The position numbers were made by a program, and so were the translations under genes. DNA of 64,000 nt from Camelus dromedarius (lineage: Eukaryota), in assembly GCF_036321535.1 (NCBI RefSeq), contig NC_087436.1, positions 4,154,001 through 4,218,000 on the forward strand, in the 5' to 3' direction. Within the stretch, counting starts at the first letter, position 1, and each line of letters begins with the position of its first letter. Below are positions 1,571 through 50,120 of the stretch, in pieces. The notes under the pieces are model-generated. The model made no database searches, was not told the DNA's origin, and worked only from the letters and a program-made list of their open reading frames with translations.

Positions 1571-1929
1571 GTAAGAACCTGCCACACACTTTTAAAATAT
1601 AATGTGAAATGCTGAGAAAACTGAAAGTCAAGCTGGGAACTATGTAGTCTCATAGAGAAAACTTTTTCCAGAGAACATCTGAGCCAACGCAGGGCGCCAC
1701 TCTGGAGGTTCCACAGTCTCTTCTGATCACAGTGCTTCCCCCAATTCTTTTCACCTCATTTGTTCAAATCAGATCAGTGGTTTAGGATTCTCCAGGGTCT
1801 GATTAAGAGACCAGATGGAGGCATTAAGAATTCTAAAATTTTCCAAGATTAACAACCAAGGTAAAATGTCTAAGATAGCCTAACAAAAGGATAGTAGGAA
1901 CTATCAAAAAAAAAAATAAAAGTAAAAAC

Positions 1930-3100: not shown

Positions 3101-3214
3101 TACAAACAATGCACAGTTCTGAAGGAATTATGTCTACAGGTAGAAGCATTTTTCTTATTTTATTTTTTATTCATTTTCAGAGTTGGAGTCTTTTGATTGT
3201 AGGTGACAAAATCA

Positions 3215-3665
3215 ATCTCCAATGTGCTTAAACAACAACCAAAAAATGGGGATGCAATGGATTTATTGGTTCCTGTAAATGGGAACCTCAGGTCTGAGGT
3301 CTGGCTTCAGTCAAGGAGAGATACTGTAGCCCAGATGATGTCAAGGGCTGGTTTTCTCCTGTCTTCATTCTGTGTCCAAGGATGTCTCAGCATGCTGCTT
3401 CTAGGCACTCAGCATCCCAGATCATCCATCCAAACCAAGAGAGGTCTCTTTTGGCAGCTTCCTCTCTTGATAGGGGAAGCTTATCATTCACATGGGCACA
3501 AGCACGTATCTCCTCACATAATAGTGGCTCTTACTGCGTTATTTGCCAATTCTCAAATCATGTGTGAGGCCAATAGAATGAGGGGTATTATTTGTCTTAA
3601 GCCAACTGAGATCTACCTCTGGTGCTTCAGAAAGAGTGGGTCAATCAAGCTTAAATCACAGGACT
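3215..3665 (-). mobile_element. Old MaLR LTR (MLT1J/K/L-like)
   Basis: GCTTAAACAAC...GATTTATTGGTTCCTGTAA...GGCTTCAG matches the reverse orientation of the MLT1 3' end. Approximate. Confidence 0.5.
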
Positions 3666-5806
3666 AAAAACAGAAGGGAGGTCATTTATCCTAAAGCAAA
3701 ATCTGGGTCCTCTTCTAAGACTGGGGACAGATCCAGGACTGCATTTCTGTCCACTACTGAGTACTTTCAAATTTTCTTTAATGAGCAAATATTAAAGTTA
3801 TGCTCGGAAAAAAATGATAAGTAAGAAGAAACTTGAGGAAGTAGAATGGAAAGCTTTCCTGTTTCTTAAGAAATATTGAATCCATTAAGTGCTTGGAAGA
3901 AAAACGGAAATGTGTCAAGTTTGTAAAAGTTCTGAAATGAATTAGAATTGATTTCACAGACCATGTAGGAGACAGTGCTATACAGTTAGTGTGTCTTTGG
4001 GCTCTTTGAGTATTTCAGTTCTTTCACTTAATAGTTGCTTCATTGGGGGCAAATTGCATCTTCTCCACGTGGCTCTATTTCCTCATCTGTAAAAGAGATA
4101 TAATATTACCTTCCCCACAGGATGATTGTGAGGATTTAGAAAAATAGATGTGTGCTGAAGCAATAGTAAGCATTTAAAGAATCTTAACTATTATGATTAC
4201 TTAATACACAATTAAAAAATTATTATGCAGACTTTTAAAAAATGCATAGTATTTAAATGGCCTATATGTGCTGTACAAGAGGGGAAGGCTTAATATACCT
4301 TCTATAATACATTTTTCTCAGCCTTAACTAATTTTCACATTTAATCACACACACACTAAAAAGTTATTCCTATCACAAGCATGAAGACTTAACTGTGAAG
4401 AAAAGGGTGATGAAAGAGAGTACGGGAGGAAATAAAATGTTTTCTCTACAAACTGATGGCTTAAAAACTAAGGGAAATGCCTTTTTAAGACTTTGGTCAC
4501 GATATTCATAGCTAATACTTAGGTAGAGTTTTTCACATGCCTGTGGTTAATGTTCCAATTGTTTTCACAATCAGTAAATCATTGACTCATCACAATAGTC
4601 CTATAAATTGCTATTATTATCCCCCCATTATGTGGGTGAGGAGATTGAAGCCCCTAGAGGTTAAGAAATTTGCACAAGGCCCGACAGCTAGCATCGGAGC
4701 TGGGATCCAGATGCAGGAGTGTGGCTCCAGGAGGGGATTGTAAACACTCCATCTGCTCTCCCTTGCAGGTGCAAGCCAGCCTCCCGCATTTACAGTAAAT
4801 AACATGATGTGGTTCACTTAGTCTTGAAATTCACATGCTTTGTAGCTTTCTCTCTGGGGCAGCCATCAGGAGCAGCCAGGGACACTGAGTACATGCTTCT
4901 GGACTATGACCAAGAAGGTAGATGGAAGGAAAACAGTTTAAAAATGGGATCTTTAATGTGCATTCTTCAGTGGCCAGAAAAAACCTGCCTAGTGAGGAAC
5001 TGAAACCCTATCAGCCACGTGTAAATTATTCTTCAGACACCCCCTTTGTCCTTGGGTCCACACAGACAGAACTACAATGGATCAGGGACATGAATCTTGT
5101 GCAAATGCAGGGAGTATGAATACCTGCCATTTTAAGATCTCAAGGAGTATGAAAAGCATGTGAAGCTTTCATCAGCAGAGACCTGCTGTCACTTCCAGTA
5201 TTTCCCTCAGGGCATGTCCACAGCTTCACTGGTCCTATTCAGAATGAAGACGACAGCTTGCACCTGCTGGCCCCTGATTCAGTGATAGGTTCTTCCTTGA
5301 AAGGAAGCATATCCCCTTCATGGGTTACAACTAGTTCATAACCTAAGTAATTCTATAGATGTAGAAGGGATATTTTCATTAGTTCTGCTATCATAGACTT
5401 GTCTCCAAAAGAACATGCCACCAGTTACTCCATTTTCACCCATTTAAAGATATACTTAACAGGCTTCCTTCTTTAGTGCAGTTTTAGGTTTACAGAAAAA
5501 TTCACAGAAAGTGGAGTTCCCATATATTCCCTATGCCCTGAACTCAGCTGCTCCTGCTGTCAGCAGGTTACATTAGTGGATGCACTCATTCTTTTTGACA
5601 TCCTTCATTCCTCCTCCCCTAAAGTTTAACATTTCTGATATTCACGTATCTTGTGGCATTTACGTGTGATTTACATCACTTCTCACGTTTATGTGAGGTT
5701 TAAAGCACATGCATGTTGTCTGTTTAAGCGTGGGTTGGGGGCAAGAATTCTGTGTAAAAATACGATCATTAGTGAGTCTCATGCTGCTGGGTTTTTGGGT
5801 TGTCAG

Positions 5807-6033
5807 GTCCTGTTGACCATTGCTTCAGTTATTGGGATCATTGTCTACAGGCTCTCAGTGTTCATTGTATTTTCAGCAGAACTTCTCAAGAACCTGAATG
5901 GAAGAGACCCAATCCAGAAGTACCTGACTGTGCAGGTGGGCCATGCCCATCACTACTTCCCTCATCAGTTTTATCATCATCGTGACCCTGATCGCCGTAT
6001 ATGAGAAAGTGGCAGTCATGATGACTGAGTCTG
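5807..6033 (+). pseudogene. ANO6: ANO6-like pseudo-exon (~exon 13)
   Basis: tcag|GTCCTG...TCTG|gtaag. Reads VLLTIASVIGIIVYRLSVFIVFSAELLKNLNGRDPIQKYLTVQV, then a +1 frameshift near 5938, then AMPITTSLISFIIIVTLIAVYEKVAVMMTES. Confidence 0.93.
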
Positions 6034-7122
6034 GTAAGCTCCTCCTGCAGCTTAGGTCATTTCTACACCAGTTTTACAACCAGGTCAAAACAGAGACTAC
6101 CTTTTAGGCACTTCAATTCCAGTATATTACAGTCTTTAGAAAACTTCAAGTGTAAACGTATTTTCTCTAGCCTATGTGAGAAGTGAATTAGCTCCAGCTT
6201 TGGATTAGTAAAAGGGACAAAGGAAGCATTAGAATGTCCAAGCTCTGTGTAAACAGGTCAGTGCTTAATAATAATTTCATTTACATTAGATCATGTACCC
6301 TACTGTTGAAAGTAAATAGTCTCTTGCAAATAAGTGAAGAGGGTTGTGGTTCCAGTGGCATATTTTCTTGTGCATTATGGAGAGGACAAGTAATCACAGT
6401 GTTATGTGTCTTCCCCCCATGCTGTTCCTGTTAGTGTAGCTCCATTCCCATCAGCTGTGGCGTCTATAATAAATGTTTCTTCTCTCTGGCTTGTATCCCA
6501 GCCAGCAGCTTAGCGGCCCAAGTTAAGTGCTTCCCACATGCTGCATGTGGCTGGGTGGCACTCCCAGTGGTCTGCTCAGTGGTAATCTTCTGAAAACACC
6601 AAGACCAATTCAAATTCTAAACTAGGAGTTTGACCCATTTTATGTTCCCCAAATACTACTAGCAAGTTGCCCCGTGTTTTGTTTAGTTTCTTCAATAGTC
6701 CTACCTTACTGCCGTTCAGGGAGACAAGAGAATATCATTTAGCAGGATGTTTAAAAGTAGCTTTCTGTCAACTTACACCTGACAGAGGACAGTTCTTGCC
6801 CATTGGATACTGTTGTGCTTATAAATTTTAAGGAATGGCTGAATTTTTTTTTTTTTTTTGCCTTGTGGGATATTGTGTTCATAGTGGGAGAAACTCTTAC
6901 AACAGTGTGTACATTGGAATTAACATAGTAGCTATGATAATGAATTCAAAACTGCTTAAATGAAAACAGTGTTAATTGTGTGTGTATATGTATGTATATA
7001 TTTTTGTGTGTGTATATGTATGTATATATTTACCGTGTTAACTCATGTGTCCATGGCTTTGATTAGGGTCTCAAAGCCATTCACAGTTTTGCAGATTTAA
7101 CTTTTCTTTGTTCTAGCTGCAG

Positions 7123-7291
7123 AGCTCCCAAGGACCAGACTGACTATGAGAACAACCTAGCCATGAAGGTGTTCTTGTTCCAGTTTGTCAACTAGTACTC
7201 CTCGTGTTTCTACATCACATTCTTTAAGGGAAGATTTGTGACTTATCAGGGAGATCTGGTGTATTGGCTGTGAAAATACAGAAATGAAGAG
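7123..7291 (+). pseudogene. ANO6: ANO6-like pseudo-exon (~exon 14)
   Basis: gcag|AGCTCCCA...GAAGAG|gtgtga. Reads LPRT (-1 nt) [49 protein letters not shown]. Stops are TAG 7193-7195 and TGA 7271-7273. Confidence 0.93.
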
Positions 7292-7466
7292 GTGTGAGTA
7301 AAGCTTTGTGTTCAGACAGTCTAACCGTTTCATGTTTTCTCTTAGTTGCCCAATGAAGAGTGTCTTTACTCTCTGTTCCTTAGATTTTTTTAGGCATAAA
7401 ATAATGATTTTATTTCATGTTAGAGCTATCTAAAATTTAAATGAGATTTTTTTTCTAATATTCCAG

Positions 7467-7564
7467 TGTGACCCAGGTGGCTGTTTCCTTGAATTGATGA
7501 CACAGCTGACAATAATCATGGGAGGACAGTCAATCTGGAATAACATACAAGAGGTGTTACTTCC
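7467..7564 (+). pseudogene. ANO6: ANO6-like pseudo-exon (~exon 15), frame still open
   Basis: ccag|TGTGAC...CTTCC|gtgagt. 98 nt, reads [33 protein letters not shown]. Confidence 0.93.
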
Positions 7565-7974
7565 GTGAGTACTAAGTCATGTGATCATGGGGTGAGAATG
7601 GCCCACCCATCCACGTCATTTTCCTGCGTGCCCATCTCTAAAGCAGGGGAGGCTCTGCTTATTAAAGCTCTCCAGATAAGATAATCCAGCCAACAGTGTA
7701 AATGTACCTGCTGTTTAATAATTATGCTTAAACACCTTCCTTTTTATGTTTAATTTAAACCCCCAAGTGTTATAGTTTCTGCTTATTATCCCATCACTGG
7801 GGACTGACTGATCAGAGCCCTTTGAGAGATGGCCCTTTTTGGGGCTGTGAACTAAGTTTTCCCACAAGTTCCCACAACTTTCTCCTCCTTTGATACATGC
7901 ATTTAAAAATCCATAACAAGAATTTGTTGAGTGCCTATTATGTGCTGGTCACTGTATTAAATGTTGTACATATA

Positions 7975-7984
7975 TGTGTGTGTG

Positions 7985-8029
<45 letters not shown>
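7975..8029. repeat. (TG)n microsatellite inside a MIR remnant
   Basis: Pure TG run at 7987-8028. Confidence 0.95.
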
Positions 8030-8031
<2 letters not shown>

Positions 8032-8425
8032 AATTTAATCACCCAAACAATCCTTATTCTTATCTTCCTTTTGCAAATGAATATCCTGTGGCTTAAAGAG
8101 GGTAAATGATTTGCCCAAGCTCTCAATGCCAATAAGAGACCACTGTGGGACTCAGATGTAAGACCCTATCTCTCTGAATCCATGTTCCTCTAAGAACAGA
8201 GACTCTCTTGGGGTCCTAAGGCACAGTGTTAAATAATGTTTTAAGAGACACTTGTCTAAAATAATAACTACAGAGGTTTTGACTTACTGTTCTCTTCCTA
8301 AAAATGAGAAAAACAGATGTTAGCAAAGGTCACACTATCCTTTTGATTTTCACATAAGCCCAATCCCACATCAAAGTGGACAGTCCAGTGTTATCTGCAA
8401 TTTCTGAACATTTCAAGGAGCTTAA

Positions 8426-8953
8426 TATATTCGCTTTCTGTTGCTGTTGTAACAAGTGTCCCCAAACGTCATGGTAGTAGGAAGAAAAAAGAAAAAGTCT
8501 CCACTAAACAACACAAATTTAACCTTGTAGGGTTCTTGAATGCAGAAGCCTGCTGAAGTCAAAGTTTTGGCAGGGCTGTTTCTGAAGGCCTCAGGCGAAC
8601 CTGTATCTTTGACTTTTCTGGCTTCCAGAGCCTACCTGCATCTCTTGGCCTGTGACCTCTTTTCTCTCTCTAAAGTTCAGTGTGGTTGTGTGTCTCTGAC
8701 TCTGATTTTGTGGTCACATCTCCTCTCCTCTCTCTCCTCTTCTGCCTCCCTCTTCCTCCTTTTAACGACCCTGGTGATTACACTGGGCCCACCTATATGA
8801 TCCAGCTCATCTCTCTTAGAGTCGGCTGGTTAGCAACCTTAACTGCTTCTGCAACAATAGGCCCCCTTTGCCAGGGAACCTGACCTCTTCATATATTCTG
8901 GGGATTAGGACATAGACATCTTGGGGGGGGGGGACATTTTTCTGCCTACCACA
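8426..8953 (-). mobile_element. MaLR solo LTR (MLT1D-like)
   Basis: Starts TTGCTGTTGTAACAAG and ends CTGGGGATTAGGACATAGACATCTTGGGGG...TCTGCCTACCACA, typical of MLT1D. Confidence 0.75.
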
Positions 8954-11900
8954 CTGGCTTTGAGTTTCTGTTCTCATGAAACTCTTGATCTCTCTTCTGT
9001 CTTGCCTTCCACACCAGCATTCTGCTCCTGGCCAACCTAACTGCACTGCTCACCCCTCTCTGTGGTGTCCCCCAAAACCACTTACACAAGCAGGCCTTAC
9101 TGTTGTTTGGAGCATGGAGGATAAACTCAAACAACTTGAATTTTGAAATAAGAAACCTCCATCATTTTAAAATCTTCCATGCCACTATAAAAAATTTTAA
9201 CTTCGTTTTTTAATTTTTAAACTATTTTAAACTTTGTTACTTTTTTTAAACTTTACTTTTTTTTCTTATCATCCTTCATTGTAGGCTCCAGAAAACTGCT
9301 ATTCTGCCCACCGCATCCAACTTCCCTTTCATTGTTTATCCTCCCTTCCCTAATCTTCCTTCTCTCTCCCTTATTACCAAGTTTCTGTCCATTCTCTTTA
9401 TAGGGCAGTTAAATTATTTTTTGTTTCTTTCTTTCTGTTTCTGCAGAGTGAACACCTTTGGGTGTCAGTGTGTCCTTCCACATTTCTTCACAAGGGCTTC
9501 TCCTTTTAGCTTCAGTATGAATTACTGGGGTCTGTCTCTAAACAAAGGCATTTCCCTTGTCCCCCAGCTCACCACGCCCCTCAAAAAAAAACAAGATTCT
9601 GATCTTCGCTGTGAAGTGAATCTTTTTTTTCCCCTACTGTGTAGTAGACAACTCTTACCCTGAGCTCACAGTCAGATTTTTCCAGAGGAGTAAAAGTAGC
9701 TCATGTGCAAATAATACTATTTTTCTCTGTGAAAAGAAATAGAACAGATAGAGGAAATACTTAACACAGATTACTCAAAAGCATTTCCTGAAGGAAATAG
9801 GCTAGTTATTTAACACTAAATTTTGTTGAATCTGGTTATCAGTGAGCTACTTTTACCAATCAAGGAGAAGGATTTAATTTCTAAATTGGTACTGAGCAAT
9901 TCATGTGAAATGAAACTTGCTCACATGAACTAGTTTAAAGTAAAGGGTGCATTATAGTATCTGTGGTCTGTTTATACCTTCGCTTAAGTAAGCACATTGC
10001 TGTAGGTTCCAGTGAGCTGAACTTTGCCTCCATGTATTTCTACTCTGGGCTAAAATATTTAGGGAATATATTTTGAATTATGTTTCCCTTGTTTGAAAAC
10101 CAGGAATGCTGAATGGTAGCCAAGTTCGAGGGTGGCTTGTGTTTTCCTCACTGCCTCTTTGCTTTGTATAAGGTGCCAGTTTCCTTCTTAATTTTTCATA
10201 TAAAATCCTAACATACCAAAGATCTATCAATTACTCTTGCTGCACCAAAACTATACCCATCCTCAAAAATAAATAGGAAGGGAAAAGAAAACTTATCAAA
10301 GTTAGCGACTATTTTCATGCTATTTAAATATGTCTAAAGGAACATAATGAAATGAAGTTCACCATAACTCACCTGCCTCCAACCCCCCAATTCCATGTGG
10401 GGTTCTTGAGTAGGATTCTGGGAGCAAATGAAGAAGGACAGTGATGCCGTGATCCAGGCTCCCTCTGGGGTCTCTCCAGCACTTGGATCGACACCTGGTA
10501 TAAAGTAGGTCTCAGTCCGAGCCAACTGAGTGAGTGAGCAACTCACAGGCATTGCATGCATAACATCAGTCAATTAAAAGCATTCTTTGTAGGACTCAGA
10601 GAATAAGCTGAGAGCCCTGAGGCCTTCCCAGCCTCACATACTATTTTGATATTGGGGTCATTTCTGGGAATGTTATTCTGTACTTGACAAAAGGCTAGTA
10701 CAATTCCAGGGTTAAGCAACTTGCCCTAGGGAAATTTTATGTTAAAATATTAAGAAAAATAAATGCCCAAAATGACATAGCATTGTCCTTTGGTGTTTAG
10801 ATAATTTATGGCTGTAATTTTCTTACTTTATATGTATTCTACAATTTCCACCGTGGGTATGCACTACTATATAATAAGAAAAAGCAAGTGTTTAAAAGAG
10901 AAAATCTCTCTTCTCCGGATATGATTTGGTTAGAGGATGAGTCAGATACATATAATAAGAGAATCTTAAATACATGTGTCCATAATTCACTCTTTAAATT
11001 CAGGAACAGGAAACTCAGGAATGAAATAGATTAAGAGAATCAAAGATACTTGTATTCAAGATTAGCAAGTGGGAGTGTCCTCAACAGAAATGGTGATAAT
11101 CTGTAATGCAGGGATTACATGTGATAATGAGGGTACAAAGACAACATGAAGAAGAAAATGCCACGTGGCAAGCACTGAGTAAAGGGCAATTTACTATGAT
11201 TATGGCAATATGTGTGGTCAATTCCCAAGCACATGATTGTGTAACCCCTGCTAGAGGGAGAAAGCTTCCAGCGTTGGCTGGAAAGGGGGGCGGATCCAGT
11301 GTCTGTATTTTTTAATATGTCTACAGGTGCTTCTCATGTGCAAATTGATATCCCTGCACGAGAACTGTAACTCAACAGAAAACCGAAAAGACCGAGGACA
11401 GTGATGGGTTGCCGACAGCCCAAGCTTTTCTGCCACAGAAGCGTGGTTCCTCTCAGGAAGACTGGGCAAGAGGCTCAGAGCCTTAGCTAAGGACAAGCCA
11501 GTCGGGGCTTCTAATACGACCTAATGCCATCGGCGGGGGAGGGCAGTTCAGCACAAGAAGGGAGCGCCAGATGAGTTAGCATGGAAGTTTCATCCTGGAT
11601 CCAAACCGTGATGGATTTGGGTCCCGGAGGGTAAAAGCCCTGCTTCCCTGGGGCATGGACCGCATTCCACAAGAGGCTGAGACAGGAAGTATGAGGCAGA
11701 GAAAAATTCCCTCAGGAGACTCCCGAGTCTGGGTGCCAGGAAGGGTGATGGACGAGCGCGGTCCCAGCGCCACCCGCACCGCAGGGCTCCTAGTGGCTGT
11801 GGAGCTGCACGCTCCCGGCCGGACCTCAGACCTGACTGCAGCGCTCTGGGCTGCGGCCTGGGGAGCGGCTTCAGCAGCAGGCTGTCCCCGTCATTCTCGT

Positions 11901-18760: not shown

Positions 18761-20910
18761 CCGTGAGAGAGGCTTGGGCGAGGGTTAGTTTTGTTTTACA
18801 TTGGGAGTTTCTGGCCTTGCTGAGTTGCTAGGCCTTTGCTGTTGTTGGTCTTTGTTCCAAAAGCTTTTTAGAAAGTTCTTCTCGCTTAAATATCTGAACA
18901 GATTAAATCATGTTGGGTTATTTCTGGTGTTTTATTTTAATTGAAAAATTATCTGGAATTTATTTTAATGTCAAAAATGAGGACACCGTACCAAGTGTTC
19001 CAATGATTTAGCTAATTACTCCAGAATTCCAATCCACCGATTTGAAGTGTCAGTTTTATAATATTACTAAAATCTTAAATAGCCACGTCTATTCTTGAAA
19101 TGTATTCTATTTCATTCATACTCTCAGTGCACTATTTCAAAACTGTTTCCATGACCATAGATTAATACATTCTAGAGTTGGTCCTATTTTATCCTTTTCC
19201 AGAATGTCCCTAATACTACAAATTCAAACATCCCTCTTCATTATTTTATCTGTATATTTGTGTATATTTCTGGAAGAACTTTAGGATCACCTTTCATCTT
19301 GTTTCCTTAAATCCATTTGGGATTATTAACTAAATTTGCATTCAGATTCTAAATTTATTTTGGAGAAAAAATTGGCTATGTCCCCCAAACTTGAGTCTGC
19401 CCAGTGAAGAGTATGGTGCATTCTACTGTTCATTCAGTCATCATTTTTTTTAACTCATTTATCAGAATCATGTTAACATTTTTCATTAATTTATTTCTGA
19501 ATAGTCTGTGCTTTGGTTGTCATTATAAATGATATATTTTCTGGGTTTTGAACTGGGTTGATCGCTAATAAAGTCTTAATTTCTGGCTTCTCTTGAATAA
19601 GAAGGAGATCTGACAGTGTGGGGCCCACTTTCCAATATGGTGACGGTGACCAGTGCGTTTCCTTAGGATGTCCACTTGCCAATTTGCCAGTGGCTGCACA
19701 CACTCCACACATTTCTGCTACTTACCTGCCCCCTGTAGGCAGATGAGCTCATGTAGGGTTAGGTGGGTTATGGACACAGATACTGACATCACTGCTGCCA
19801 CGCTGCTGACCCTGTGGCGTCACTAACTCTGCTTCTTCCTCTCTGACCTCCCTGAATATGACAGCTCCTTCTGGGCTGTGGACCTGCTGCATCTTTCCAG
19901 CACTGTCGGCTTTTCTGCAACACACCCCTGCCTCTCAGGTCAGAAGCAAATGTCAGCTCCTCCTACCCATCCACCCCACCCACGGTCTTGCCGTTCCTGG
20001 CCAGAGTGGTCCCTACCCCTTGACTGAGCAGTAACACTAAAGGGACTATAAATTTGCCTCTCATCCACTGTCTTATTTACATACATGTGCTAGTTTATTT
20101 TAAAGATCTGCCCGTTAGGAGGGGAGGGTCTAAAAGTCTTTTAGATCTCTGGCCTTATCATTTCTAACCGCTCCCCCACCCCATGGAACAGCTTACCACA
20201 GATCTCTGCTGCCCCGTCTGTAGCAAGGCCCTGTAAATTACAGACAGAGAGAAAAGAACTTCTAAGCCACCACCATAACTTTGACTTCCTGTGACCACAC
20301 AGACCATAGAAATATCAACATAAAAATTCCTGGAGAAGGATATTTTGCTTAGGAGGACACTTTAATTGCATACCTTTCTGTGACTTGTAATAACTTCATA
20401 GACCCACCTTCCCAGACTCAAGGGAGCTTGCTCACTTGCCTATTTTCAGTGTATTTCCTCCAACGTTCTCTATGCATAGCTTTCCCAAAGGTACATTTCT
20501 TATTTCTATTTAAATTGTTAGATACATCCACAATATTCTTTTTTTAATCCTCAATTACAAATCATCTTCCAAGATTGTATTATTTCAACACTGAGAGTGA
20601 ATAATATGCTTCAAGATTCCCAAGTTTATTACCAGCAAATAACTATGGTTGGCTAAAGACTTTTAAGTATGTTTTTCCTACTAAGGGTATATACGTGAAT
20701 TAAACAGTTTGTAATGAGTCTTCTTCCCAGAGATTTTATATTTGCCTTTTGTTTGGATTCTTTCACTGTTGAACATTATTATTACCATGAATGTCTTTTC
20801 TCTTTGGGATTTAGTTCACCATTTGCCCCTCTCTCTTTACAGGAGTAAAGGAATTTATGTTGTCCTTCATCCATCCACCACTCCATGTTGTGTGTCCATT
20901 CCTTCAACAG

Positions 20911-21119
20911 GTATTCAGTTTGGGTTCACCACCTTATTTGTGGCCTCTTTCCAGTGTGGCCCCTCTGTTGGCTCTGGAGAAAAACATATTGGAAATCAGA
21001 GTGGGTACGTGGAATCTTGACTACCCAGTATAGACGCATGGTGCCAGAAGAAGCCCAGGACGTCGCAGTGTGGCAGCCCACCAGGCAAGGAACAGCAATT
21101 CTGGCTGTGGTGGACCAAT
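20911..21119 (+). pseudogene. ANO6: ANO6-like pseudo-exon (~exon 17)
   Basis: acag|GTATTCAG... Reads IQFGFTTLFVASF / APLLALEKNILEIRVGTW / LTTQYRRMVPEEAQDVAVWQPTRQGTAILAVV / TN across about three +1 frameshifts. The donor is degraded (gctact). Confidence 0.9.
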
Positions 21120-24341: not shown

Positions 24342-25598
24342 GTTCTAGTTAGGGGAAATTTTGCAGCAGAAAATCCCCTCAGTTGTTTTTCTTGCTTTGC
24401 CTGAGATCTTGTTTGTTGGCGTGTGGTCTCATGGTGTCTAAACCGTATGTTCAGATGAATACTATTAAAATCATATGGTGCAGAAAACATATCTGTTCTG
24501 CTTCAAAAAATTACTGAAACATTTAGCTTTGTTTATTCCATAGAATTTGGATTGAATCTATTCTCGACTTTCTTCTTCCTTCAAGCCAGTTGTTTACTGG
24601 AGGGTTTAAAGCCCAAATTAAAGAATTTTGGAGAAGACTCATGTAATTCATAAGAGCTTTACATCCGAATTTAAGACTGACCCATATTTATACTTTTAAT
24701 CAAGGAACACAATAAACTTTGTTAGTCGAACATTTATGACTTTTTTAACTTTGTCCATGTAATCTTTAGGAAGTTCAGAGGCTTAGACACTTGATCTAAC
24801 AAAACAGGTATCATTGCTTGACTCTGTGAATGAAAGAATCCCAGTATAGTTTCCTGCAAGTATATTTTATTAAAATTAATAAAGAATTCCTGCTCTCTAA
24901 TAAAGCAACAGACAGAAGCACATACTGAGTGTTTAAAATAAATCAGAATATAGGTTAACTTATCTAAGCAAGTCAAGATAGTATAGGGAAAAAAGTATGA
25001 AGTTGAAGGAAAATACATATTGTGCAATTAATATCCTATTTTAAAGAAGCAAATGATAAAAAAAAAGCCAATTTTTAAATCATTTATCTATGAAGGAGTT
25101 ATATAAAGCAAACATATTCATAAGTGTTACAGAAACTAAAGGGCTATTTAAATCTACATTATAAAAGATTAAATTATACCAAATAGATCTCCAAGGTTGA
25201 TTGATTTTCATGATATTTATACTTTTTGAAAATATAACTTATATAAAACATATCCAAGCAGCTCTTGAATTATCCACAGTAACCTAGTCTACAGTTACTC
25301 TTACTGTACTTAAAAATGTAATAGGCAAGGTTCGGGCCCTTGCTTCTGAACTGCCACTGGACTTCTGGATACTCCCTTAGGTTAAAGACCAAAAGCAAAG
25401 TAACTATTCTACTTTAAAGCAGTTGCTCAAAGACTCTAAGACATTCACTATCTATATCCAGTTACAGGAAAGAATTAAGTTTTCTGTACATTAAAAAAAA
25501 GAAATCTTCTGCTGAAAATGAAATTCTGTCATGTATGCTGACCATAAATATAAAGGCTCTAAATTAGTGCTCCCTTTGCTGTTTTCCTACCAGCACAG

Positions 25599-25620
25599 GC
25601 CATGATCATCGCTTTCACAT
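25599..25620 (+). pseudogene. ANO6: 5' stub of ANO6-like exon ~18 (AMIIAFT), cut off by the satellite
   Basis: Pyrimidine tract, then cacag|GCC ATG ATC ATC GCT TTC ACA T. This is exactly the peptide expected after ...AVVTN. Satellite sequence follows directly. Confidence 0.85.
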
Positions 25621-28600
25621 TCCCTTTATGCTAGATGAACTAACGCCTCTCCACATGCTCAATTCTGACAGTTGAATGTGTGTGAAAGCCGTCAATCACC
25701 TAGCTTGTTGAGAACACACAGTTTCTTTTCAGTGGGAAACTACATTACATACATATATATGGGGAGGTACTAGCTCCAAATCGGTTTTACAGTGAAATCT
25801 GCATGAAATTCTAACCGGCACTAGGAAACATACTGAAAAACCAGCTTAACTGTTTATAGTGCTACCTATTCTCTTTATGCTAGATGAACGAACCCCACTA
25901 CACATTTTCAATTCTGAGAGTTGAATGTGTGTGAAAGCCATCAATCAGCTAGCTGGTTGGGTACGCAGAGTTTCTTTTGAGTGGGGGAATAAATTACATA
26001 AACTTATATGGGGAGGTACTAGCTCCAACTCGGTTTTACAGTGAAATCTGCATGAAATTCTAACCGGTACTAGGAAACATACTGAAAAACCAGCTTAACT
26101 GTTTATAGTGCTACCTATTCTCTTTATGCTAGGTGAACGAACGTCTCTGCAAATGCTCAATTCTGAGAGTTAAGTGTGTGTGAAAGCCAACAATCACCTA
26201 GCTTTTTGGAAACAAACATTTTCTTTTGAGTGGGGAACTACACTACATTCATATATATGGGGAGGTACTAGTTCCAACTCTGTTTTACAGTGAAACCTGC
26301 AGGAAATTTACCGACACTAGGAAACATACTAAGAAACAAGAGTAATTATTTCTACTGCAACACATTTCCCTTTATGCTAGACGAATCAAAGCCTGTCCAC
26401 ATGCTCCGTTCTGAGATTTTAATGCGAGCGAAAACCATATATCACTTAGCTTGTACGGAACACACAGTTTCTTTTGAGTGCGGAACTAACTACATACATA
26501 TATATGGGGAGGTAATAGCTCCAGCTCGGTTTTACAGAGAAAACTGCATGAAATTCAAACCGGCACTAAGAAACATACTGACAAACCAGAGTAATCCTTT
26601 CTACTGCTCGCCATTCCCTTTAAGCTAGATGAAGGAACGCCTCCACATATGCACAATTCTGAGAGCTGAATGTGTGAAAACCGTCAATTACATAGCTAGT
26701 TGGGAAAACACAGTTTCTATTGAGTTCGGAATTACCCTAGATAAATATATATGGGGAGGTACTAGCTCCAACTATTTTACGGTGAATACTGCATGAACAT
26801 CAAACTGGCACGAGGAAACGTACTGAGAAACCAGTGTAAGTGTTTCTACTGCAAACAATTCCCTTCATCCTAGTTGAACAAACGCCTCTCCACATGATCA
26901 GTTTTGAGGGTTGAATATGTCCAAATGTAATCTATCACTTAGCTTGTAGGGAAAAAACAGTTTCTTTTGAGTGGGGAAATACACTCCATACATATATATG
27001 GGGAGATACTAGCTCGAAGTAGGTTTTACAGTGAAAACTGCATGAATTTCAAACCGGTACTAGGAAACATACTGAGAAACCAGAGTAAGTATTTCAAATG
27101 CTACCTATTCTCTTTATGCTAGATGAACGAATGTCTTTTCACATGCTCAATTCTGGGAGTAAGTTTGTGTGAAAGCCATCAATTACAGAGCATGTTGGGA
27201 CACACAATTTCTTTTCATTGGGAAAATAAAGTACATACATTTATATGGGGAGGTACTAGCCCCAACTTGGTTTTACAGTGAAAACTGCATGAATATCAAA
27301 CGGTACTAGGAAACATACTGAGAAATCAGAGTAAGCTTTCATATTGATACCTATTCTATCTATGCTAGATGAACGAACGTCTTTCCACATGCTCAAATCT
27401 GAGAGTTAAGAGTGTGTGAAAGCCTTCAATCACCTAGCTTGTGGGAACACACAGTAACTTTTCTGTGGGAAACTACACTACATACATATATATGGGGAGG
27501 TACTAGCTCCAACTCAGTATTACTGAATGAACTACAAAACGGCACCTGGAAACATACTGAGAGCCAGAGTAAGTATTTCTACTAAAACACATTCCCTTTA
27601 TGCTAGATGAAAGAACGTCTCTCCACATTCTCAATTCTGAGACTTAAGTGTGTGTGAAAGCTGTCAATCACCTAGTTTGTTGGGAAAACACAGTTTCTTT
27701 TCATTGGGTAACTACAGTAAAAACATATATATGGGGAAATACTAGCCTCAACTCGGTTTTACAGAGTACACTGCATGAACTTCCAACTGGCACTAAGAAA
27801 CATACTGAGAAATCACAGTAAGTGTTTCAATGGCTCCTCATTCCCTCTATGCTACATTAACGAACGCGTCTCCACATGTTAAATTCTGAGAGCAGAATGT
27901 GCGAGTAACCGGACAATCACCTATCTTGTTGGGAATACACAGTTTATTTAGAGTGTGGAACTAAACTACATACATATATATGGGTAGGTACTAGCTCCAG
28001 CTCGGGTTTACAGTGATAATTTCACGAACTTCAAACCAGCATTAGGAAATATACTGAGAAATCAGACTAAGTGTTTCTACTGCAACTCATTCCCTTTATG
28101 CTAGATGAACGAACGCTTCTCCACATGGCCAATTATGAGAATTAAGTTTGTGGGAAAGCAGTCAATCACCTAGCGAGTTGGGAACACACAGTTTCTTTAC
28201 AGTGGGAAACTACACTACATACATGTATATGGGGAGGTACTAGCTCCAACTACGTGTTACAGTGAAAACTGCATGAACTTCAAACCAACACTAGAAATAT
28301 ACTGAGAAACCAGAGTAATGTTTCTAATGCAACCCATTTCCTTTATGCTAGATGAACGAACACCTCTCCACATGGCCAATTATGAGAGTTAAATGTGAGG
28401 GAAAGCAGACAATCACCTAGGTAGTTGGGAACACAGTTTCTTTTCAGTGGGAAACTACACTACATACATGTATATGGGGAGGCACTAGCTCCAACTCGGT
28501 TACAGTGAAAAGTGCATGAACTTCAAACCAGCACTGGGAAACATACTGAGAAACCAGAGTAAGTCTACGTAGTGATACCTATTCTGTCTATGCTAGATGA

Positions 28601-29704
28601 ACGAACGTCTTTCCACATGCTGAATTCTGAGATAACTGTGTGTGAAAGCCGTCAATCACCTAGCTTGATGGGAAAACACAGTTTCTTTTCTGTGGGAAAG
28701 TACACTACATACATTTATATTGGAAGGTATTAACTCCAACTGGATTTTACAGTGAAAACTGCAGGAAATTCAAACCAGCACTAGGAAACATACTAAGAAA
28801 ACACAGAAAGTGTTTCTACTGCAACCCATTCCCTTTGTGCTAGATGAAAGTATGCCTGTACAATGCTCTGTTCTGAGAGGTTAATGCGAGCGAAAACCAT
28901 CTATCATTTAGCTGTAGGGAACACACAGTTCCTTTTGAGCGGGAGAATAAACTACAGACATATATATGGGAAGGTCCTAGCTCCAACTCGGTTTTACAGT
29001 GAAAACTTCATGAACTTCTAATGGGCACTAGGAAACATACTGAAAAACCAGTGTAAGTGTTTATATTGCTACCTATTCTCTTTATGCTAGATGAATGAAC
29101 GTCTCTGCAAATGCTCAATTCTGAGAATTAAGTGTGTGTGAAAGCCGACAATCACCTAGCTTGTTGGAAACAAACGTTATCTTTTGAGTGGGGAACTACA
29201 CTACATGCATATATATGGGGAGTTACTTACTCCAACTCGGTTTTACAGTGAAAACTCCATGAACTTCAAACCGGCACTAGGAAACGTACTGAGAAACCAG
29301 AGTAAGTGTTTCTACTGCAATCCATTCCCTTTATGCTAGATGAACGAACGCCTCCCCAAATTCTCAGTTCTGAGAATTGAATGTGTGTGAAAGCCTTAAA
29401 TCACCTAGCTTCTTATGATCACATAGTTTGTTTTCATTGAGGAACAACACTAAATAAATATATATCGGGAAGTACAAGCTCCAAATCGGTTTTACAGGGA
29501 AAACTGCATGAAATTCAAACCGGCAGTGTTAAACATTACTGAGAACCCAGAGTAAGTGTTTTTAGTGCTACCTATACTCTTTAAGCTATATGAAAAAAAC
29601 GTGTCTCCAAATGCTTAGTTCTGAGAGTTAAGTGTGTGTTAAAGCCGTAATTAACCTAGCTTGCTGGGAACACACAGTTTCTTTTCAGTTGGAAACTGCA
29701 CTAC
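25616..29704 (+). repeat. Tandem satellite array of ~248-bp monomers, ~16.5 copies, diverged
   Basis: The anchor CTAGATGAA(-like) starts at 25631, 25880, 26129, 26377, 26625, 26870, 27119, 27365, 27603, 27852, 28101, 28348, 28593, 28840, 29087, 29336 and 29586 (spacing 238-250). Recurring blocks include ATATATGGGGAGGTACTAGCTCCAACTCGGTTTTACAGTGAAAACTGCATG and ACTAGGAAACATACTGAGAAACCAGAGTAAG. Confidence 0.97.
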
Positions 29705-29795
29705 TTACTCTGGTTTCTCAGTATGTTTCCTAGTTCCAGTTTGAAGTTAATGCAATTTTCACTAAAGCCGAGTTGGATCTTGTACATCTATATAC
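29702..29795 (-). repeat. Inverted partial satellite monomer capping the array
   Basis: TACTTACTCTGGTTTCTCAGTATGTTTCCTAG...GCCGAGTTGGATCTTGTACATCTATATAC is the reverse complement of the monomer segment TATATGGGGAGGTACTAGCTCCAACTCGG...CAGAGTAAGT. Confidence 0.92.
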
Positions 29796-31428
29796 TTTTA
29801 ATTTTAATGATATTGAGCCCCAAAAGTCCTTTCAGAACAGCTGACTCTGAGAATTACCACAGGACTCTCAGATTACGAGAACTGGAGGGGATGGTCTCTT
29901 CTCCCCAGTTCAAAGTGGGTAAAACTGAGGCCCAGAGCATGGAAGGGACTTGTCCAAGGTCACTCAGGGGGTTAGTGTCAAAATGGGGGGTGATCCACAG
30001 CTGGAGACTGTTTTCTAAAGTGCATGTCTGATGCGGTCTCCCTCCACGCCCCCCTGTTGCCTGGAGAATAAACCCAAACTGCTTGGCAGGGCCTAAGAGG
30101 CCATTTACTCCTTCCCTTTCACCTCAGCCTCACCTCCCCAGCTCTCCCAGGTCAGGGACCTCCTGCATTCCTTAACGTGTCACTCTGATGTCTTTGCCCC
30201 TGATGTTTCCTGTCTCCCCACCTATCTAGTAAGCTCCTATTCACCCTTCACAACCCAACTTAAATGTGCCTTCCTCTCAAAAGTCCCCTCCCATTTCCAG
30301 GTTGAGTTACTCTGCCCCTCTTCTGCGATCCCGTAGCACTGAACGCATGTGATAGTAATTATTTGAGTATTTCTTTGTCCTCCTCCACCCATATGTTTTA
30401 TTTTGTCTTTGCTTCCCTGGAGCTTAGTCCAAAGCCTGGTCCATAGTAGGCACACAGTAAATATTTGTGACATTGCCATTGCCAAAGCTAAGGGACCCCT
30501 TTCTTTGCTTTCCTTCTCAGCTTTTCTATAGTATCTGATGCCACTGATTCTTTCTTCTTGAGATGCTTCCTTCCTGAGCGCCTATGGTTCCCCTCTGCCT
30601 GTTTTTCCCTTCGACCTCTCTTGACTGTTCTGTACTGGTCTCCTTTTGGGGTGTCCCTTCCTCTGTCCATCTCTTCTAGACTGTGATTGTTTGAGGATTT
30701 GTCCTGGCCTTCTCTTGTGCTCCTCAGGAAAGCCTTCTCTGCCTAGAGTGTCATAGGATTCAGGGTCTTTGCTTACGCTGTTCCCTCTCCCAGAGACACT
30801 TTTCCCCTTGTTTCTGGAATGACCAGCTTCTTCTCAACCTTCAGGTTTCAGCCCAGATGTCACCCTCTCAGAGAGTCCTTCCCCAATCACCTGAGCTCAG
30901 CCTGAGCTTGGGCACTGAGCAGCTGGTAGGACTGTTGGATGGCAGGAAAAGTGAAGGAGGGGGCAGGTCCTGGGCAGAGCGGAGCACAGAGAAGTGGAGG
31001 GGCATGCATCCGTGGCACGAGTGCTAACAGCTCCTCCCAAGTTACCGCTGGGGACTCCACGTCTCCTCCATCCAGTTTTTGGGTTATTAATGCTCCTCAG
31101 TAAACTTCCAGTGAGTGTGATAAAACACTTAGCAGGGTGCAGCCAGAGCTCATGAAAGCAGGATTTAGTGCCATTTTGTAGATGTCAGGGCTGACCTCCA
31201 CACTCGGGCTAGTGTGTATTTAAAATTCATGCCCAACTCTCTGCCTTCAGGGAGAAGGCCTGGGGCCTGGGGGAGATGACACAGTTCCACACTGCCTTTG
31301 CAGGTCTGTCACACTTGGAATGGGCGCTGGCCAGGGGGGCCTCCCAGCAGGGGTCAGGCCGAGCCAGGTGGGGCCTCCCATAGTCTCCTTCCTGATAAGA
31401 ATGGGCTTTGGAGCCAGACAGACCTGTG

Positions 31429-45050: not shown

Positions 45051-47921
45051 TCTTCTGTTTTTCTGGGCTCCTGAGAGGTAGTGAGTGTCCCATTGTGGGA
45101 GGTATGCAAGCAGGAAACTTAAGTGCAAGGTCAGGCTGGGATCTTCTGCTCCTGTTTCTGGGGATTTCTGGTTTCCCTGCCCTAGGAGGACCTTTGTGCC
45201 TCTGGATCTGTTTGCATCAGCTCTGGGAAGCAGTAATGGTTTCTCTCCCTCCCTTCCCCATCTACCGGTCTTCCTGCCTTCAGGACGGACCTTCAGACTC
45301 TATTTCTGTCCATATGCTTGTGATCGGGGTGCAGAGCCCAGACCTCACCAGAGAGGCCTGGCCTGAGGTACCCAAAGGCCTCTTGGCTGGACTGTCCTCT
45401 GTGCACTCTGTGGACCCACATGGGGATAGGGATCTGGGCTCTGCTCTGAGGAGAAGCAGGATTTGTCCGCTTTCCCAGATACCCTCTGTCCTCATGGCAT
45501 TCCCCCAACTTACCATTACAGCTATTCGTGTGGCTTACCTCTCCACTAGACTGCCAGCCCGCAAGGACAGCGGGCTCGTATTTCCATTTCTGGCACATGG
45601 CAGGCACCTTCGGGTGGAAGGAAAGAATGAATGAATGGTCCTTTGGAACTTGGAGGGGACTATGGTGGCTTCATAAGCTGAGCCCAAACTGGAGCCCATC
45701 ATCTGACCAGAACAAATACTCTTTGGGGACAAAGGGACAGAACACCTGAAATTGAGGTCTATCCCAGAAAACCCAGTACAGCTGGTTGTCATCAGGAGGG
45801 CTGTCTCCTGAATCTCAGGTCCACGTGGAGCCATGAAAGTCACCCATGTTGACCCTGAGCTGACGTCTGACCTTGAGAGCGGATGATTTCTCCTCTCCAT
45901 GAGCACATTCCAGACAAAATGAGGTTGGGAGACATTTGCATCCAAACCACCAAGCTCTTTAAATGCTGGGGCCTGGAGGCCTGATGGGTTTATTAGGTTA
46001 TTGTGGAAGTTAATAATTTCTCTTCAATGACATGTAAAGGCAGTTATTTCAGGAGCCTGTCCATTTACACAAAGCCAAGTATTTGTCAAGTGCCAGAGGC
46101 AATTCCCAGGTGCCAGCCCCCCCTCAATAATTCTGGATTAGGGACAGCCTGAAATTAACTTACACAAATTTTCTTTCAAGATGCATGGAGCTCTGGGGAC
46201 CACTCAGGAATTTCAGGTTCCTGAAGATTATGCTGTCAGCAAAAGGGCTGGGGTGGGGGCAGCTGAGCCCCTGCAGCTTTCCAGCTGGGCCAGCTCCAGA
46301 GGGGGAGCGGGGAAGCGTGAGTGGGGGCAGGGCATGGATGGCCATTAGTCTGCAGGGGCCCATTTGCCTCCTGAAAACAACTTACTGCCATTTGTATCGC
46401 AAACCTCACGCCCAGCTTGATGGTTTTTCCTTGTTCTTTGACTCAGGCCCGGGGAGGGGCCGTGGCCTGGTGGGGACAGCAGGACTGGCACACGTCCCCT
46501 TGTGGCAATATATTAGGGAAGGTCAAAGAGCCATCAGCCCCTGTCTGGGAGTTAAGTGCTGGGAAGTGGGAGGCACTGCAGGGACCAACTCACTACTAAC
46601 TCACTCCTAGATCCCGAGAGCAAGACACTTCAGATCCCAGAGCCGTGGGCCAGAGGTGGGAGGGGTTCCTGAGCCTGGTCTAGCCTGAGCCCCTGGAGCA
46701 GCAAGAGCTCAGACCACTAAAGGAGGGGGCTCTCTGCTGAGGAGGGCGGCGTGGCCAGGGTTGGTGTAAATCAGAGAGACCTCTGCCAGGCCTCCTGGGC
46801 TCTGTGGAAAGGTCACCCCCGAGCTGTGGTTCCTGGCCAGCCTTGCTCAGATACCTTTAATCTGGCTTCCAGGAAAGGCATCAGCCTGGGCGGGGGCAGG
46901 CGGGAGTCGGACAGATGAAGAGCTCCTCTGGGAGCCGTGTGTCCAGGACCGGCCACCCCCCCCACCGGCTTAGGGTGGCAGGGCTGGCTGTGTGACGGAG
47001 GGATGTGGGGAGGACTCATTCTTTCTGCCAAGCTTCTCTGAGGCCAGGTGGTCCAGGCCAAGCCGAGAGAGGCAAGGCCATAGTTCTCACTCACTTTGGG
47101 AGTCTTGATTTGCACATCAAAGGGTCTAATCCTGGCAGGCCCTTGGGCCCCAGGGGGCCCCAGTGAAGTTGCATTCTCCAGACCCCTGTAGGCCTTGCTT
47201 GGATAGGTTTTGGGGGTCAGGGAGGTGGTTGGAAGGGAGCTAGGTGCATCTGAAAGGGGCCCCTTAATTCCCCTGCGTGGTGGCTGTGGCCCCTACAGAC
47301 ATCCTGGACCAGATTAGCCTTTAACCGGGCAGCTCCAGGCCTCAGCTGCGGGGCCTGGGGCTCCTCCTGGCGGGTGAGCTGGCCAGCTCTTCTGCTTTTG
47401 TCTCCAGCCAGCTGGAGTCCTTGATGAATGGTCTGCACACCCCCTGCCCTGAGCCCTGCCACCATGTTGAGTGCTGGTGTCCCCAGCCAAGAGGAATGGG
47501 CCCCACTAACAAGCTGGAGGTGGCAGCTCGGTGACCCCTGACCCCATGCACTTGGAGCCAGCGGCCTGGGGAATGGCTGCCCCCAGCCTGCTTAATGTGT
47601 CGGGCTGGCTTCTGCAAGGAAAACACATTCAGTGCTCATTAGAGAAAATTGGTCTAATTGGGCTGGAAGCATTCTACTGATCGAACATGGAATTTTTATT
47701 AGGAGGGTGACTGAAGTTCAGCCACAGTGTCCCAGCTGGGAGGTGGCAAGAGATTGTCTCTAGGGATTTCACCCAAAATCTCTTGCCAGCTGATATCAAA
47801 TATCTAGGGAGGTCTGGGTTTGAATTCAGACTGTGCTACCCACAGCCTACATCCTGGGACCCTTTGGGAGCTTCTCCTAGACCTGTTGCCTTAACAGTAA
47901 AATTGAAAAAGAAAGAAATTA

Positions 47922-49460
47922 GAGAAAGAAAGAGGCTGGAGGAATAACTCTCCCAGACTTCAGACAATACTATAGAGCTACAGTCATCAAGACAGCATGG
48001 TATTGGTACCAAAACAGACATATAGGCCAATGGAACAGAATAGAGAGCCCAGAAATGAATCCACAAACTTTTGGTCAACTCATCTTCGACAAAGGAGGCA
48101 AGAATATACAATGGAATAAAGACAGTCTCTTCAGCAAGTGGTGTTGGGAAAACTGGACAGCAGCATGTAAAGCAATGAAGCTAGAACACTCCCTTACACC
48201 ATATACAAAAATCAACTCAAAATGGATTAAAGACTTAACTTAAACATAAGACAAGATGCAATAAACCTCCTAGAGGAAAACATAGGCAAAACATTATCTG
48301 ACATACATTCAAAAATTTTCTCCTACAAGAAATAAAAGCAAGAATAAACAAATGGGACCTAATGAAACTTACAAGCTTCTGCACAGCAAAGGAAATCAGA
48401 AGTAAAACAAGACGACAACCTACAGAATGGGAGAAAATTTTTGCAAATGAAACCGACAAAGGCTTGATCTCCAGAATATATAAGCAGCTCATACGACTCA
48501 ATAAGAAAAAAATAAACAACCCAATCCAAAAATGGGCAGAAGACCTAAACAAGCAATTCTCCAAGGAAGACATACAAATGATCAAAAAGCACATGAAAAA
48601 ATGCTCAATATCACTAATTATCAGAGAAATGCAAATCAAAACTACAATGAGGTATCACCTCACTCCAGTCAGAATGGCCGTCATTCAAAAATCCACAAAT
48701 GACAAATGCTGGAGAGGCTGTGGAGAAAAGGGAACCCTCCTACACTGCTGGTGGGAATGCAGTTTGGTGCAGCCACTATGGAAAACAGTGTGGAGATTCC
48801 GCAAAAGACTAGGAAAAGACTTACCATATGACCCAGGAATCCCACTCCTGGGCTTGTATCCAGAAGGAAATCTACTTCAGGATGACACCTGCACCCCAGT
48901 GTTCATAGCAGCACTATGTACAATAGCCAAAACATGGAAACAGCCTAAATGTCCATCAACAGGTGACTGGATAAAGAAGATGTGGTATACTTATACAATG
49001 GAATACTACTCAGCCATAAAAACCAACAACATAATGCCATTTGCAGCAACATGGATGCTCCTGGAGAATATCATTCTAAGTGAAGTAAGCCAGAAAGAGA
49101 AAGAAAAATACCATATGAGATCGCTCATATGTGGAATCTAAAAAAAACAAAAACAAACAAAAACAAAGCATAAATACAGGACAGAAATAGACTCACAGAC
49201 AGAGAATACAGACTTGTGGTTACCAGGGGGGTGGAGGGTGGGAAGGGATAGACTGGGATTTCAAAATTGTAGAATAGATAAACAATATTACACTGTATAT
49301 AGCACAGGGAAATATACACAAAATGTTATGATAACTCAGAGAAAAAAATGTGACGAGTGAATATGTCCATGAATGGCTGAAAAATTGTGCTGAACACTGG
49401 AATTTGATACATTGTAAAATGATTATAAATCAATAAAAAATGTTAAAATAAATAAATAAA
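47922..49460 (+). mobile_element. Young 5'-truncated L1 (~1.5 kb; ORF2 C-terminus, 3' UTR, A-rich tail) inserted in a MIR
   Basis: Translates to L1 ORF2 ([36 protein letters not shown]...). AATAAA and an A-rich tail at ~49432-49460. AAATTA is duplicated at 47916-47921 and 49461-49466. MIR sequence continues on both sides. Confidence 0.95.
48362..49141 (+). pseudogene. L1 ORF2p C-terminal 259-aa open remnant (not a standalone gene)
   Basis: Contains the cysteine-rich motif [18 protein letters not shown], plus [10 protein letters not shown] and the natural ORF2 end. Endonuclease and RT core are absent, and there is an upstream frameshift near 48240. Confidence 0.9.
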
Positions 49461-50120
49461 AAATTATAGTATCCTTGCAGACTTGTGAGGGGGAAGTAAG
49501 ATTAAGTGTGCATCAGGGCCATGGTATTGCCCTTAGCAGGAGACTGGATCTAGTGGGGTCTGTGTGAGCTAAGATTGCATGTGGTTTCAGTTCCTTTGGC
49601 CAAATCTACTGCAATTCAGTAATAAACCAGCCAAGTCTTTGTTGGCTGCGATTGAGGTGACTCATTTGAGAGGTATTTTTAGACCGAGATCTGGTCCCTT
49701 GAAATGTGGGGGCCACACCCCTGGTAGTCTCAGAATCACCCTCTAGCAGCTCCTCCATCTCTTGCTGCAGCCACTTCTGTTTAGTATTGCCTGAATTTTC
49801 CTAAGCTTCCCTCGACCCTGTTCCTGCTACTCTGGCCTCAATGCAGACCGTCATGGTCACTGATCACTCTGACCGAGGAATTGTCCCCATGTCCTCCCTG
49901 GCCTCTCATCTTCTTCTGCCCTGGTCAAGCCTCCACACTCACTCTCCAAACTGGTCACCCTCCAGAATAGCTCATCCTGAACCCTGGTGACTCCTCTGCA
50001 AATGGATCTTTCTAAAACACAAGTTAGATCCAGTCACTTCTCAGCTTAAAACACTTTCATGGCTCCCGATTGCCTCCAGGATATAGCCCTAACGTCTTAG
50101 CCTGCACACTGGGCTCATCC

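Follow-up and report, generated by a model that had tools for sequence, protein, structure and literature searches.

We analysed a stretch of 64,000 nucleotides from Camelus dromedarius (G000:C1:4154001-4218000, hereafter the window), in which an exon derived from ANO6 (TMEM16F) is joined within its coding sequence to an array of a 249-bp satellite. This join is probably a non-functional rearrangement scar that was inherited by a family of segmental duplications, with a history of five steps. First, a part of ANO6 (parental locus at C11:50.64-50.69 Mb) was duplicated and decayed into a many-copy, full-exon pseudogene duplicon. Second, a break inside the exon of one copy would have been joined to a 249-bp array through an overlap of 3 bp, possibly 5 bp; the junction is read directly, and the way in which it formed is proposed. 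Third, a strand switch within the satellite, from about position 122 of a + monomer to position 224 of a − monomer, would have given an ANO6>satellite><satellite<ANO6 palindrome; the joint can be read, and its place in this order is presumed. Fourth, copies of the junction-bearing unit reached at least 67 places, spread over 41 contigs. Fifth, the second arm of the palindrome in the window appears to have been cut about 80 bp past the palindrome centre and joined, via about 33 bp, to a paralogue of C18:15.32 Mb; here too the sequence is observed and the mechanism is conjectural. The structure is an ordinary scar of a segmental-duplication mosaic and has no function.

The junction between the ANO6 exon and the satellite

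At positions 25580-25640 the window reads ...ttttcctaccagcacAG|GCCATGATCATCGCTTTCACAT|TCCCTTTATGCTAG..., the middle piece being GCC ATG ATC ATC GCT TTC ACA T. The left-hand piece belongs to an ANO6 intron of the duplicon (24343-25598, + strand), which ends in a polypyrimidine tract and an AG acceptor (25597-25598, +, from reading of the sequence). The acceptor is followed by a truncated ANO6 exon of 22 nt (25599-25620, +), recognised from the sequence and from comparison with paralogues and the parent, that comprises the codons AMIIAFT plus a T. The first base departing from ANO6 is 25621, and a conceptual translation running over the join gives QAMIIAFTFPLC*. From this base onwards, Tandem Repeats Finder identified 16.5 copies of a 249-bp monomer with approximately 78% matches (25621-29708, +; reported span 25619-29708, period 249, also 494). 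The window holds no N letters.

The origin of the left-hand partner was established with the help of copies that keep the full exon. The first 24 codons of the exon in one such paralogue (L024) matched Anoctamin-6 chains only (8/8, E 6.5e-5, residues 741-764, AMIIAFTSDMIPRLVYYWSFSIPP). A genome scan with a degenerate pattern for FTSDMIPRLVYY returned two places, C11:50686306 and one on C12. The former lies in the parental ANO6 locus, with the exon in the part designated L055 (C11:50684806-50687840). Window positions 24343-25621 were 85.8% identical to the parental intron and exon over 1296 columns, and the intron and exon at C11:50686306 were also 86% identical to a full-exon copy. The parental exon (L055:1486-1689) is intact and open over 68 codons, and all 68 residues align with Anoctamin-6 741-808 (E 7e-34, versus 7e-8 for Anoctamin-1). 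The parent reads GCTTTCACATCAGAAATG; therefore, the CACAT at 25616-25620 is ancestral ANO6 sequence. At its end (L055:1686-1695), the parental exon reads ...TGCAG|GCAAGT, and the pseudogene copies read AG|GTAAGT; judged from these letters, the parental donor would be GC, not GT. Other candidates for the parent were rejected. The place on C12 (32.337 Mb, FTSDMIPRLVYYYAYS...) is another paralogue without DNA similarity to the window, and an exon of a different anoctamin lies at C14:60.218 Mb. Compared with two short queries from immediately around the AMIIAFT exon, the eight best Pfam Anoctamin loci (L001-L008) yielded nothing usable at the DNA level, just one match of 62 nt at 77%; seven of these loci are other paralogues, and L002 is the parental ANO6 locus, ending upstream of those queries.

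The remainder of the ANO6 copy in the window is decayed. The exon preceding the truncated one (20910-21118, +; ..QFGF..LTTQYRRMVPEEAQ..AILAVV) was recognised by frame reading and protein matches and is spread over three frames. Its part at 21014-21118 matched Anoctamin-6 chains in 8 of 9 rows (E 5e-10, residues 707-738), and the whole matched Pfam Anoctamin positions 334-350 in frame 0 (E 0.022) and 368-399 in frame 2 (E 8e-4), both under the curated cut-off. Its two frameshifts mark it as a pseudogene. A further ANO6-derived exon remnant of the same duplicon (7127-7318, +; Pfam Anoctamin positions 193-254, E 3.2e-9) contains two TGA and one TAG codons; thus, the frameshifted exon and these stops together indicate that the window carries a pseudogene copy. 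The open, in-frame exons of a functional ANO6 are absent, and the last exon is cut after seven codons.

The parental remainder of the exon and the downstream intron had no match anywhere in the window. The corresponding part of a full-exon copy matched the window at just 69-78%, at 48.5-49.5 and 60.4-61.1 kb; we read these matches as interspersed repeats. Direct reading of the array flanks revealed no duplicated target sequence. Since ANO6 does not resume right of the array, the join is not an insertion into the gene. Satellite inserted into the exon, e.g., from circular DNA, with the rest of the gene lying beyond the array, would explain the abrupt boundaries and nothing else, and it is hardly credible: to the right of the array lies a paralogue of C18:15.32 Mb, without ANO6 exon or intron homology, target-site duplication is lacking, and the palindromes described below carry a mirrored junction on the far side of the array. 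The initial annotation had described an intact acceptor and 22 nt encoding AMIIAFT that run straight into satellite, an exon that does not resume after the array, no target-site duplication and a base-resolved join of a duplicated ANO6 segment with satellite rather than an insertion. All of these held, as did the derivation from ANO6 when the window was aligned to the parental locus, and no ANO6 homology was found in the window right of 29.8 kb.

The overlap between the two partners was evaluated in 91 in-phase monomers (window, C31, C9, C13 and C18), which are not all independent, as the two arms on C31 are near-duplicates. The consensus preceding TTCCCTTTATGC is ...CTGCAA(A/C)CCA. At the phase of the junction, CAT was present in 59 of the 91 monomers and CACAT in eight, two of which belong to the window's own array (CACATT in phase at about 26361 and 27588, the two monomers to which the initial annotation had pointed). 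Parent sequence and monomer alignment together place the breakpoint in the interval 25616-25620, where the bases CACAT fit either partner. The overlap is for certain 3 bp (CAT, 25618-25620); the 5 bp previously proposed (CACAT) are an upper bound, which would require that a minority variant of the monomer served as donor. The claim of a short microhomology thus stood, and its length did not. In random blunt joins, an overlap of at least 3 bp is expected in approximately 5% of cases and one of at least 5 bp in approximately 0.5% (hand arithmetic, equal base frequencies). At least 2 bp are shared at the join and no filler bases are present, as in microhomology junctions. Because there is neither filler nor target duplication, the join fits end joining or a template switch, and either of these with short microhomology is the likely mechanism.

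Spread and single origin of the junction

The junction is not private to the window. The 619 bp to its left matched 39 other places, distributed over many contigs, with 89-92% identity (among the best 40 of 142 candidates, self included). When 29 other loci were compared, 20 (L010-L023, L026-L029, L031 and L033) had the identical exon/satellite join, and the remaining nine had kept the full, stop-riddled exon (AFTPDTISCLVYHW...). In all 20 junction-bearing loci the alignment was collinear from the ANO6 flank through the junction into about 1.5 kb of the array, stopping only where the compared sequence ended or at an N gap (L010). A collinear join shared by 20 of 20 loci is far beyond chance. 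Genome-wide, a 30-mer over the junction was found with up to three mismatches at at least 67 places (35 forward, 32 reverse) on 41 contigs, and the corresponding 30-mer of the full-exon pseudogene at at least 48 places; the backwards controls gave 0 in both cases. The two counts are lower bounds, some known junction copies differing at more than three positions. The initial annotation had treated the join as an event of this locus, and that view had to be abandoned.

A maximum-likelihood tree of 31 rows was calculated from 1.4 kb of flank, covering the 30 loci most similar to the flank of the window, with the midpoint root on the branch of the parent. Paralogue identity over this flank was 90.4-94.3%. 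The 21 junction-bearing rows, including the window, formed one clade with a support of 100/99. Its sister was a clade of five full-exon rows; the other full-exon copies and the parent fell outside. As the junction clade is nested inside full-exon copies, the break occurred once, in an already duplicated ANO6 pseudogene, and was then copied. The initial annotation had named a euchromatic gene segment as the partner of the satellite; the partner was indeed duplicated ANO6, and rather than fresh euchromatic sequence it was a copy already duplicated and decaying. Repeated, independent formation of the same join at a fragile or recombination-prone site is extremely improbable. The short CAT/CACAT identity is the only possible guide for such events, and the break falls at the identical base in all copies, the same monomer series follows in 20/20 loci and the junction-bearing copies are a single clade. 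An assembly artefact, i.e., a chimeric contig of ANO6-like and satellite reads, could be suspected from the repetitive array and from gaps that the assembly has in regions of this kind (on C20, the copy breaks off into 200 N once 3.7 monomers have passed). It too can be given almost no weight: the window is free of N, 67 places carry the junction, with substitutions independent of one another, and the right-hand joint of the window is found in contigs from independent runs with two other organism labels. The initial annotation had itself named misassembly as one possibility that would undo its reading.

The satellite ranks among the major repeats of the genome: a first look gave 8853 candidates, spread over many contigs (best 39 scored). 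It had no similarity to the ANO6 locus past chance words of 9-11 nt; consequently, it did not arise from ANO6. In the sister clade, one copy was followed further: the full-exon copy on C96 has, approximately 7.4 kb downstream, a diverged array of the same satellite in the opposite orientation (64-72% identity). The duplicon therefore already lived among satellite, and a local rearrangement is likelier than a fresh euchromatic capture. These data bear on the strongest competing explanation, in which the ANO6 duplicon was pasted into pre-existing pericentromeric satellite by duplicative transposition, the join is the integration edge and the palindrome arose from recombination between opposite arrays. 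That the satellite is far commoner and more widespread than the duplicon and unrelated to the ANO6 locus agrees with such an origin, as does the finding that the palindrome arms on C35 and C25 are not mirror copies. We consider it possible but unlikely, since the nesting of the junction clade in full-exon copies means that the truncated form derives from a longer, already copied duplicon, and the position of the sister full-exon copy close to satellite favours local rearrangement in a satellite-embedded duplicon.

Together, the places with the satellite junction (67) and those with the full exon (48) make a duplicon family of at least 115 places. The duplicon is a partial one of about 48 kb or more, extending from the exon at Pfam positions 2-47 through the AMIIAFT exon, and its copies are scattered over dozens of contigs, including many small, unplaced ones. 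The ANO6 copies form blocks, e.g., C11:63.7-72.5 Mb, C98:2.85-9.02 Mb and C6:88.0-91.3 Mb. On large contigs they are confined to one or two regions, often near an end, which is merely suggestive of pericentromeric or subtelomeric placement. A parental locus elsewhere, many copies of over 1 kb with identities from about 90% upwards and sharp abutments of duplicons characterise the family as segmental duplications. Of the 67 junction places, 36 share an identical 30-mer (..TTTCAAATTCCATTT.., TTTCAAATTCC) with CAAAT for CACAT and CCATTT for CCCTTT; examples are C1:180619, C4:111252 and C169:503813. This suggests a recent burst of the 36-copy CAAAT subfamily. Among the tree loci, only L017 (TTTTCAAATTCCATTT) comes near this subfamily; it shares the CAAAT change and falls in the junction clade.

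The inverted array end, the palindromes and the right flank

On its right side, the array ends in a strand switch at 29708|29709, where a + monomer at about position 122 is joined to the − strand at position 224. The satellite then continues as an inverted stub of about 80 bp (29709-29788, −), which runs from monomer position 224 or so down to 144 and was recognised by alignment and by a minus-strand match at C1:4183710-4183788. The initial annotation missed both this fold-back end of the array, which is common to other loci, and the second duplicon beyond it. A 33-mer over the fold-back joint was found at six places, namely the window, C31, C35, C13, C25 and C9:52.97 Mb (control 0). All six matches, a small number, were on the forward strand of the contig.

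Head-to-head pairs of junctions are present on C31, C9, C35 and C13, and on C31, C35 and C13 the 33-mer lies between them. The palindrome at C31:803.4-819.8 kb consists of ANO6>, the junction, 33 monomer hits on the + strand, the joint, 31 hits on the − strand, the mirrored junction and <ANO6; window positions 29450-29788 aligned best (82%) across its centre. The layout was confirmed on C35 (1.85-kb + arm, 5.2-kb − arm) and on C25. Overall, the joint is central to ANO6>satellite><satellite<ANO6 palindromes, which span 7-30 kb, at three or four of the five other loci. The window keeps just the 80-bp stub of the second arm, and its array would be the left arm of an old palindrome. The window and C31 lineages belong to different branches of the junction clade, and for this reason the strand switch is probably nearly as old as the junction. 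The two ANO6 flanks on C31 differ by only 0.0035 substitutions per site (branches of 0.0014 and 0.0021), and the outer monomers are mirrored and almost identical. Near-identical arms despite an old fold-back point to arm-to-arm conversion, a recent re-formation or a mirror effect of the assembly. In the C20 copy (L051, C20:38107000-38114999), 3.7 monomers are followed by 200 N (locus 1293-1492) and then by an inverted ANO6 piece (1493-7998). This piece matches window 4599-11128 at 96.5% identity, much more closely than the flank across the gap, which reaches 92-94%.

Beyond the stub, 33 bp (29789-29821) show no match to the sequence upstream on C18; the first 14 bp or so may be decayed satellite and the rest filler. 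At 29822 a second, unrelated duplicon begins, collinear on the + strand with C18:15324709-15336980 at 87-89% identity to at least 41921, as established by alignment. For 29785-30600, C18 is the sole other genomic copy, short repeat-like matches aside, and C18 upstream of the collinear start has no relation to the window. The left side of the C18 locus (L053/L040, C18:15322199-15324708) is 91% identical to C15:10684313-10686444. Because the C18 locus thus itself adjoins a C15 paralogue, the window and the C18 place are both mosaics.

The joints at the right end were also looked for in sequencing reads. Nineteen runs from seven studies, with three organism labels, contained at least 78% of the sampled words of 29600-30100. 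The joint between the stub and the second duplicon was spanned by read contigs with two other organism labels, X5 (29711-29906, one difference) and X6 (29713-29906, no differences); this window-specific joint is real. Read contig X15 covers 29450-29731 and thereby reaches 23 letters right of the fold-back joint, its depth being nil right of 29802. In the raw Hi-C reads of X23, "opposite strands" joints, each with 5-8 reads, were seen at other positions than the fold-back.

Several of our observations weigh against the five-step history. A 3-bp overlap is common by chance (about 5%), and only the 5-bp version, which needs a minority monomer, is clearly non-random. No exact member of the 36-place TTTCAAATTCC subfamily is among the tree loci. 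The 33-mer of the fold-back occurs at only six places, and the palindrome at C9:53.17-53.20 Mb (junctions at C9:53172510 and 53202923) is built around another centre, with (TA)n; that all of the junction clade goes back to an ancestral palindrome is therefore a proposal. The arms on C35 and C25 are only 75-77% alike, as are any two stretches of the satellite; since they are not mirror copies, an origin by fold-back requires later turnover of the array, and the joining of two oppositely oriented arrays is an alternative to it. Finally, no read contig crosses the fold-back joint with at least 31 letters on both sides, and the read contigs that span joints concern the right joint, not the left junction at this locus. 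Array turnover, arm-to-arm conversion or independent events must also have occurred. The (TA)n centre on C9 is situated in L056 (C9:53188800-53190600) at about locus positions 1500-1585.

A bolder extension of the inherited scar, which we regard as doubtful, is that the ANO6/satellite palindrome acts as a core duplicon, whose centre breaks and folds back repeatedly, drives its own spread and has seeded pseudogene-rich satellite blocks on most chromosomes. If this were true, the junction and the fold-back joint would both serve as shared-derived markers that can be dated and used to order interchromosomal exchanges, and the blocks would predate the divergence of the three organism labels in which the right-hand joint of the window occurs.

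Relation to known systems and minor features

Similar architectures are said to exist in primates, where Eichler, Horvath and colleagues reportedly described mosaic pericentromeric segmental duplications with satellite-like repeats at the boundaries of duplicons. As in those mosaics, parts of a gene with a euchromatic parent have been re-duplicated between chromosomes, duplicons are juxtaposed and repeat tracts lie at the seams. The lineage, gene and repeat are different, however, and in the window it is an exon that contains the seam, which can be placed to within 3-5 bp and adjoins a palindromic repeat tract. Inverted beta-satellite blocks reportedly bound the duplicons of the ZNF91 family in human 19p12 (Eichler et al. 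1998). The present case resembles them in an old, asymmetric orientation switch in satellite flanking gene-family duplicons, and differs in that, at several loci, one and the same gene/satellite junction stands on either side of the switch, so that true palindromes result. Human fold-back inverted duplications, said to have been described by Hermetz and colleagues in 2014, reportedly have a short asymmetric spacer. Here, the joint likewise lies off the symmetry axis, and the + arm at about 122 and the − arm at 224 would correspond to a spacer of about 147 bp. Unlike the human fold-backs, the one in the window is ancient and fixed, lies in tandem repeats and has been copied to other chromosomes, with the identity of the arms lost on C35 and C25.

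Literature searches combining ANO6 with segmental duplication and satellite, alpaca or camelid names yielded no description of an ANO6 duplicon or junction. The closest published description found, within the portion of the study available to us, is that of pseudogene-rich satellite blocks in the alpaca, where fragmented multi-copy gene-derived sequences lie amid discontinuous satellite, forming blocks of megabase size that occur on several chromosomes (Mendoza-Cerna et al. 2026, PMC13751797). In that portion, fragments of NEK10, ATF5, FMN2, uS3m, ACTB and ABHD17A are named and the satellite units measure 1.8-8.5 kb (PMC13751797). The ANO6 copies cluster in blocks in much the same manner as those sequences; in contrast to our data, the available part of PMC13751797 contains no 249-bp monomer and no base-resolved breakpoint, and its text and one text supplement do not mention ANO6 or any anoctamin.

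The value of the structure is that of a marker. Through its two joints, both known to the base, a duplicon family of at least 115 copies can be recognised, satellite-associated segmental duplication in this lineage can be ordered and dated, and copies can be distinguished when assemblies are validated. A practical caution is that ANO6-like gene models predicted at loci of the duplicon are pseudogene fragments. The window locus says nothing special about ANO6 itself, and the parental exon on C11 (50.686 Mb) is intact.

Right of the array, a Pfam scan of 77 open frames of at least 85 amino acids detected no domain; a match to PF07952 (15.7 bits, cut-off 25) in an A-rich, repeat-like frame was rejected as chance. 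Window positions 47921-49475 hold a young interspersed repeat of approximately 1.5 kb, whose copies are 94-96% identical (best 39 of 21836 candidates) and which, from its appearance, is probably the 3' end of an L1 element.

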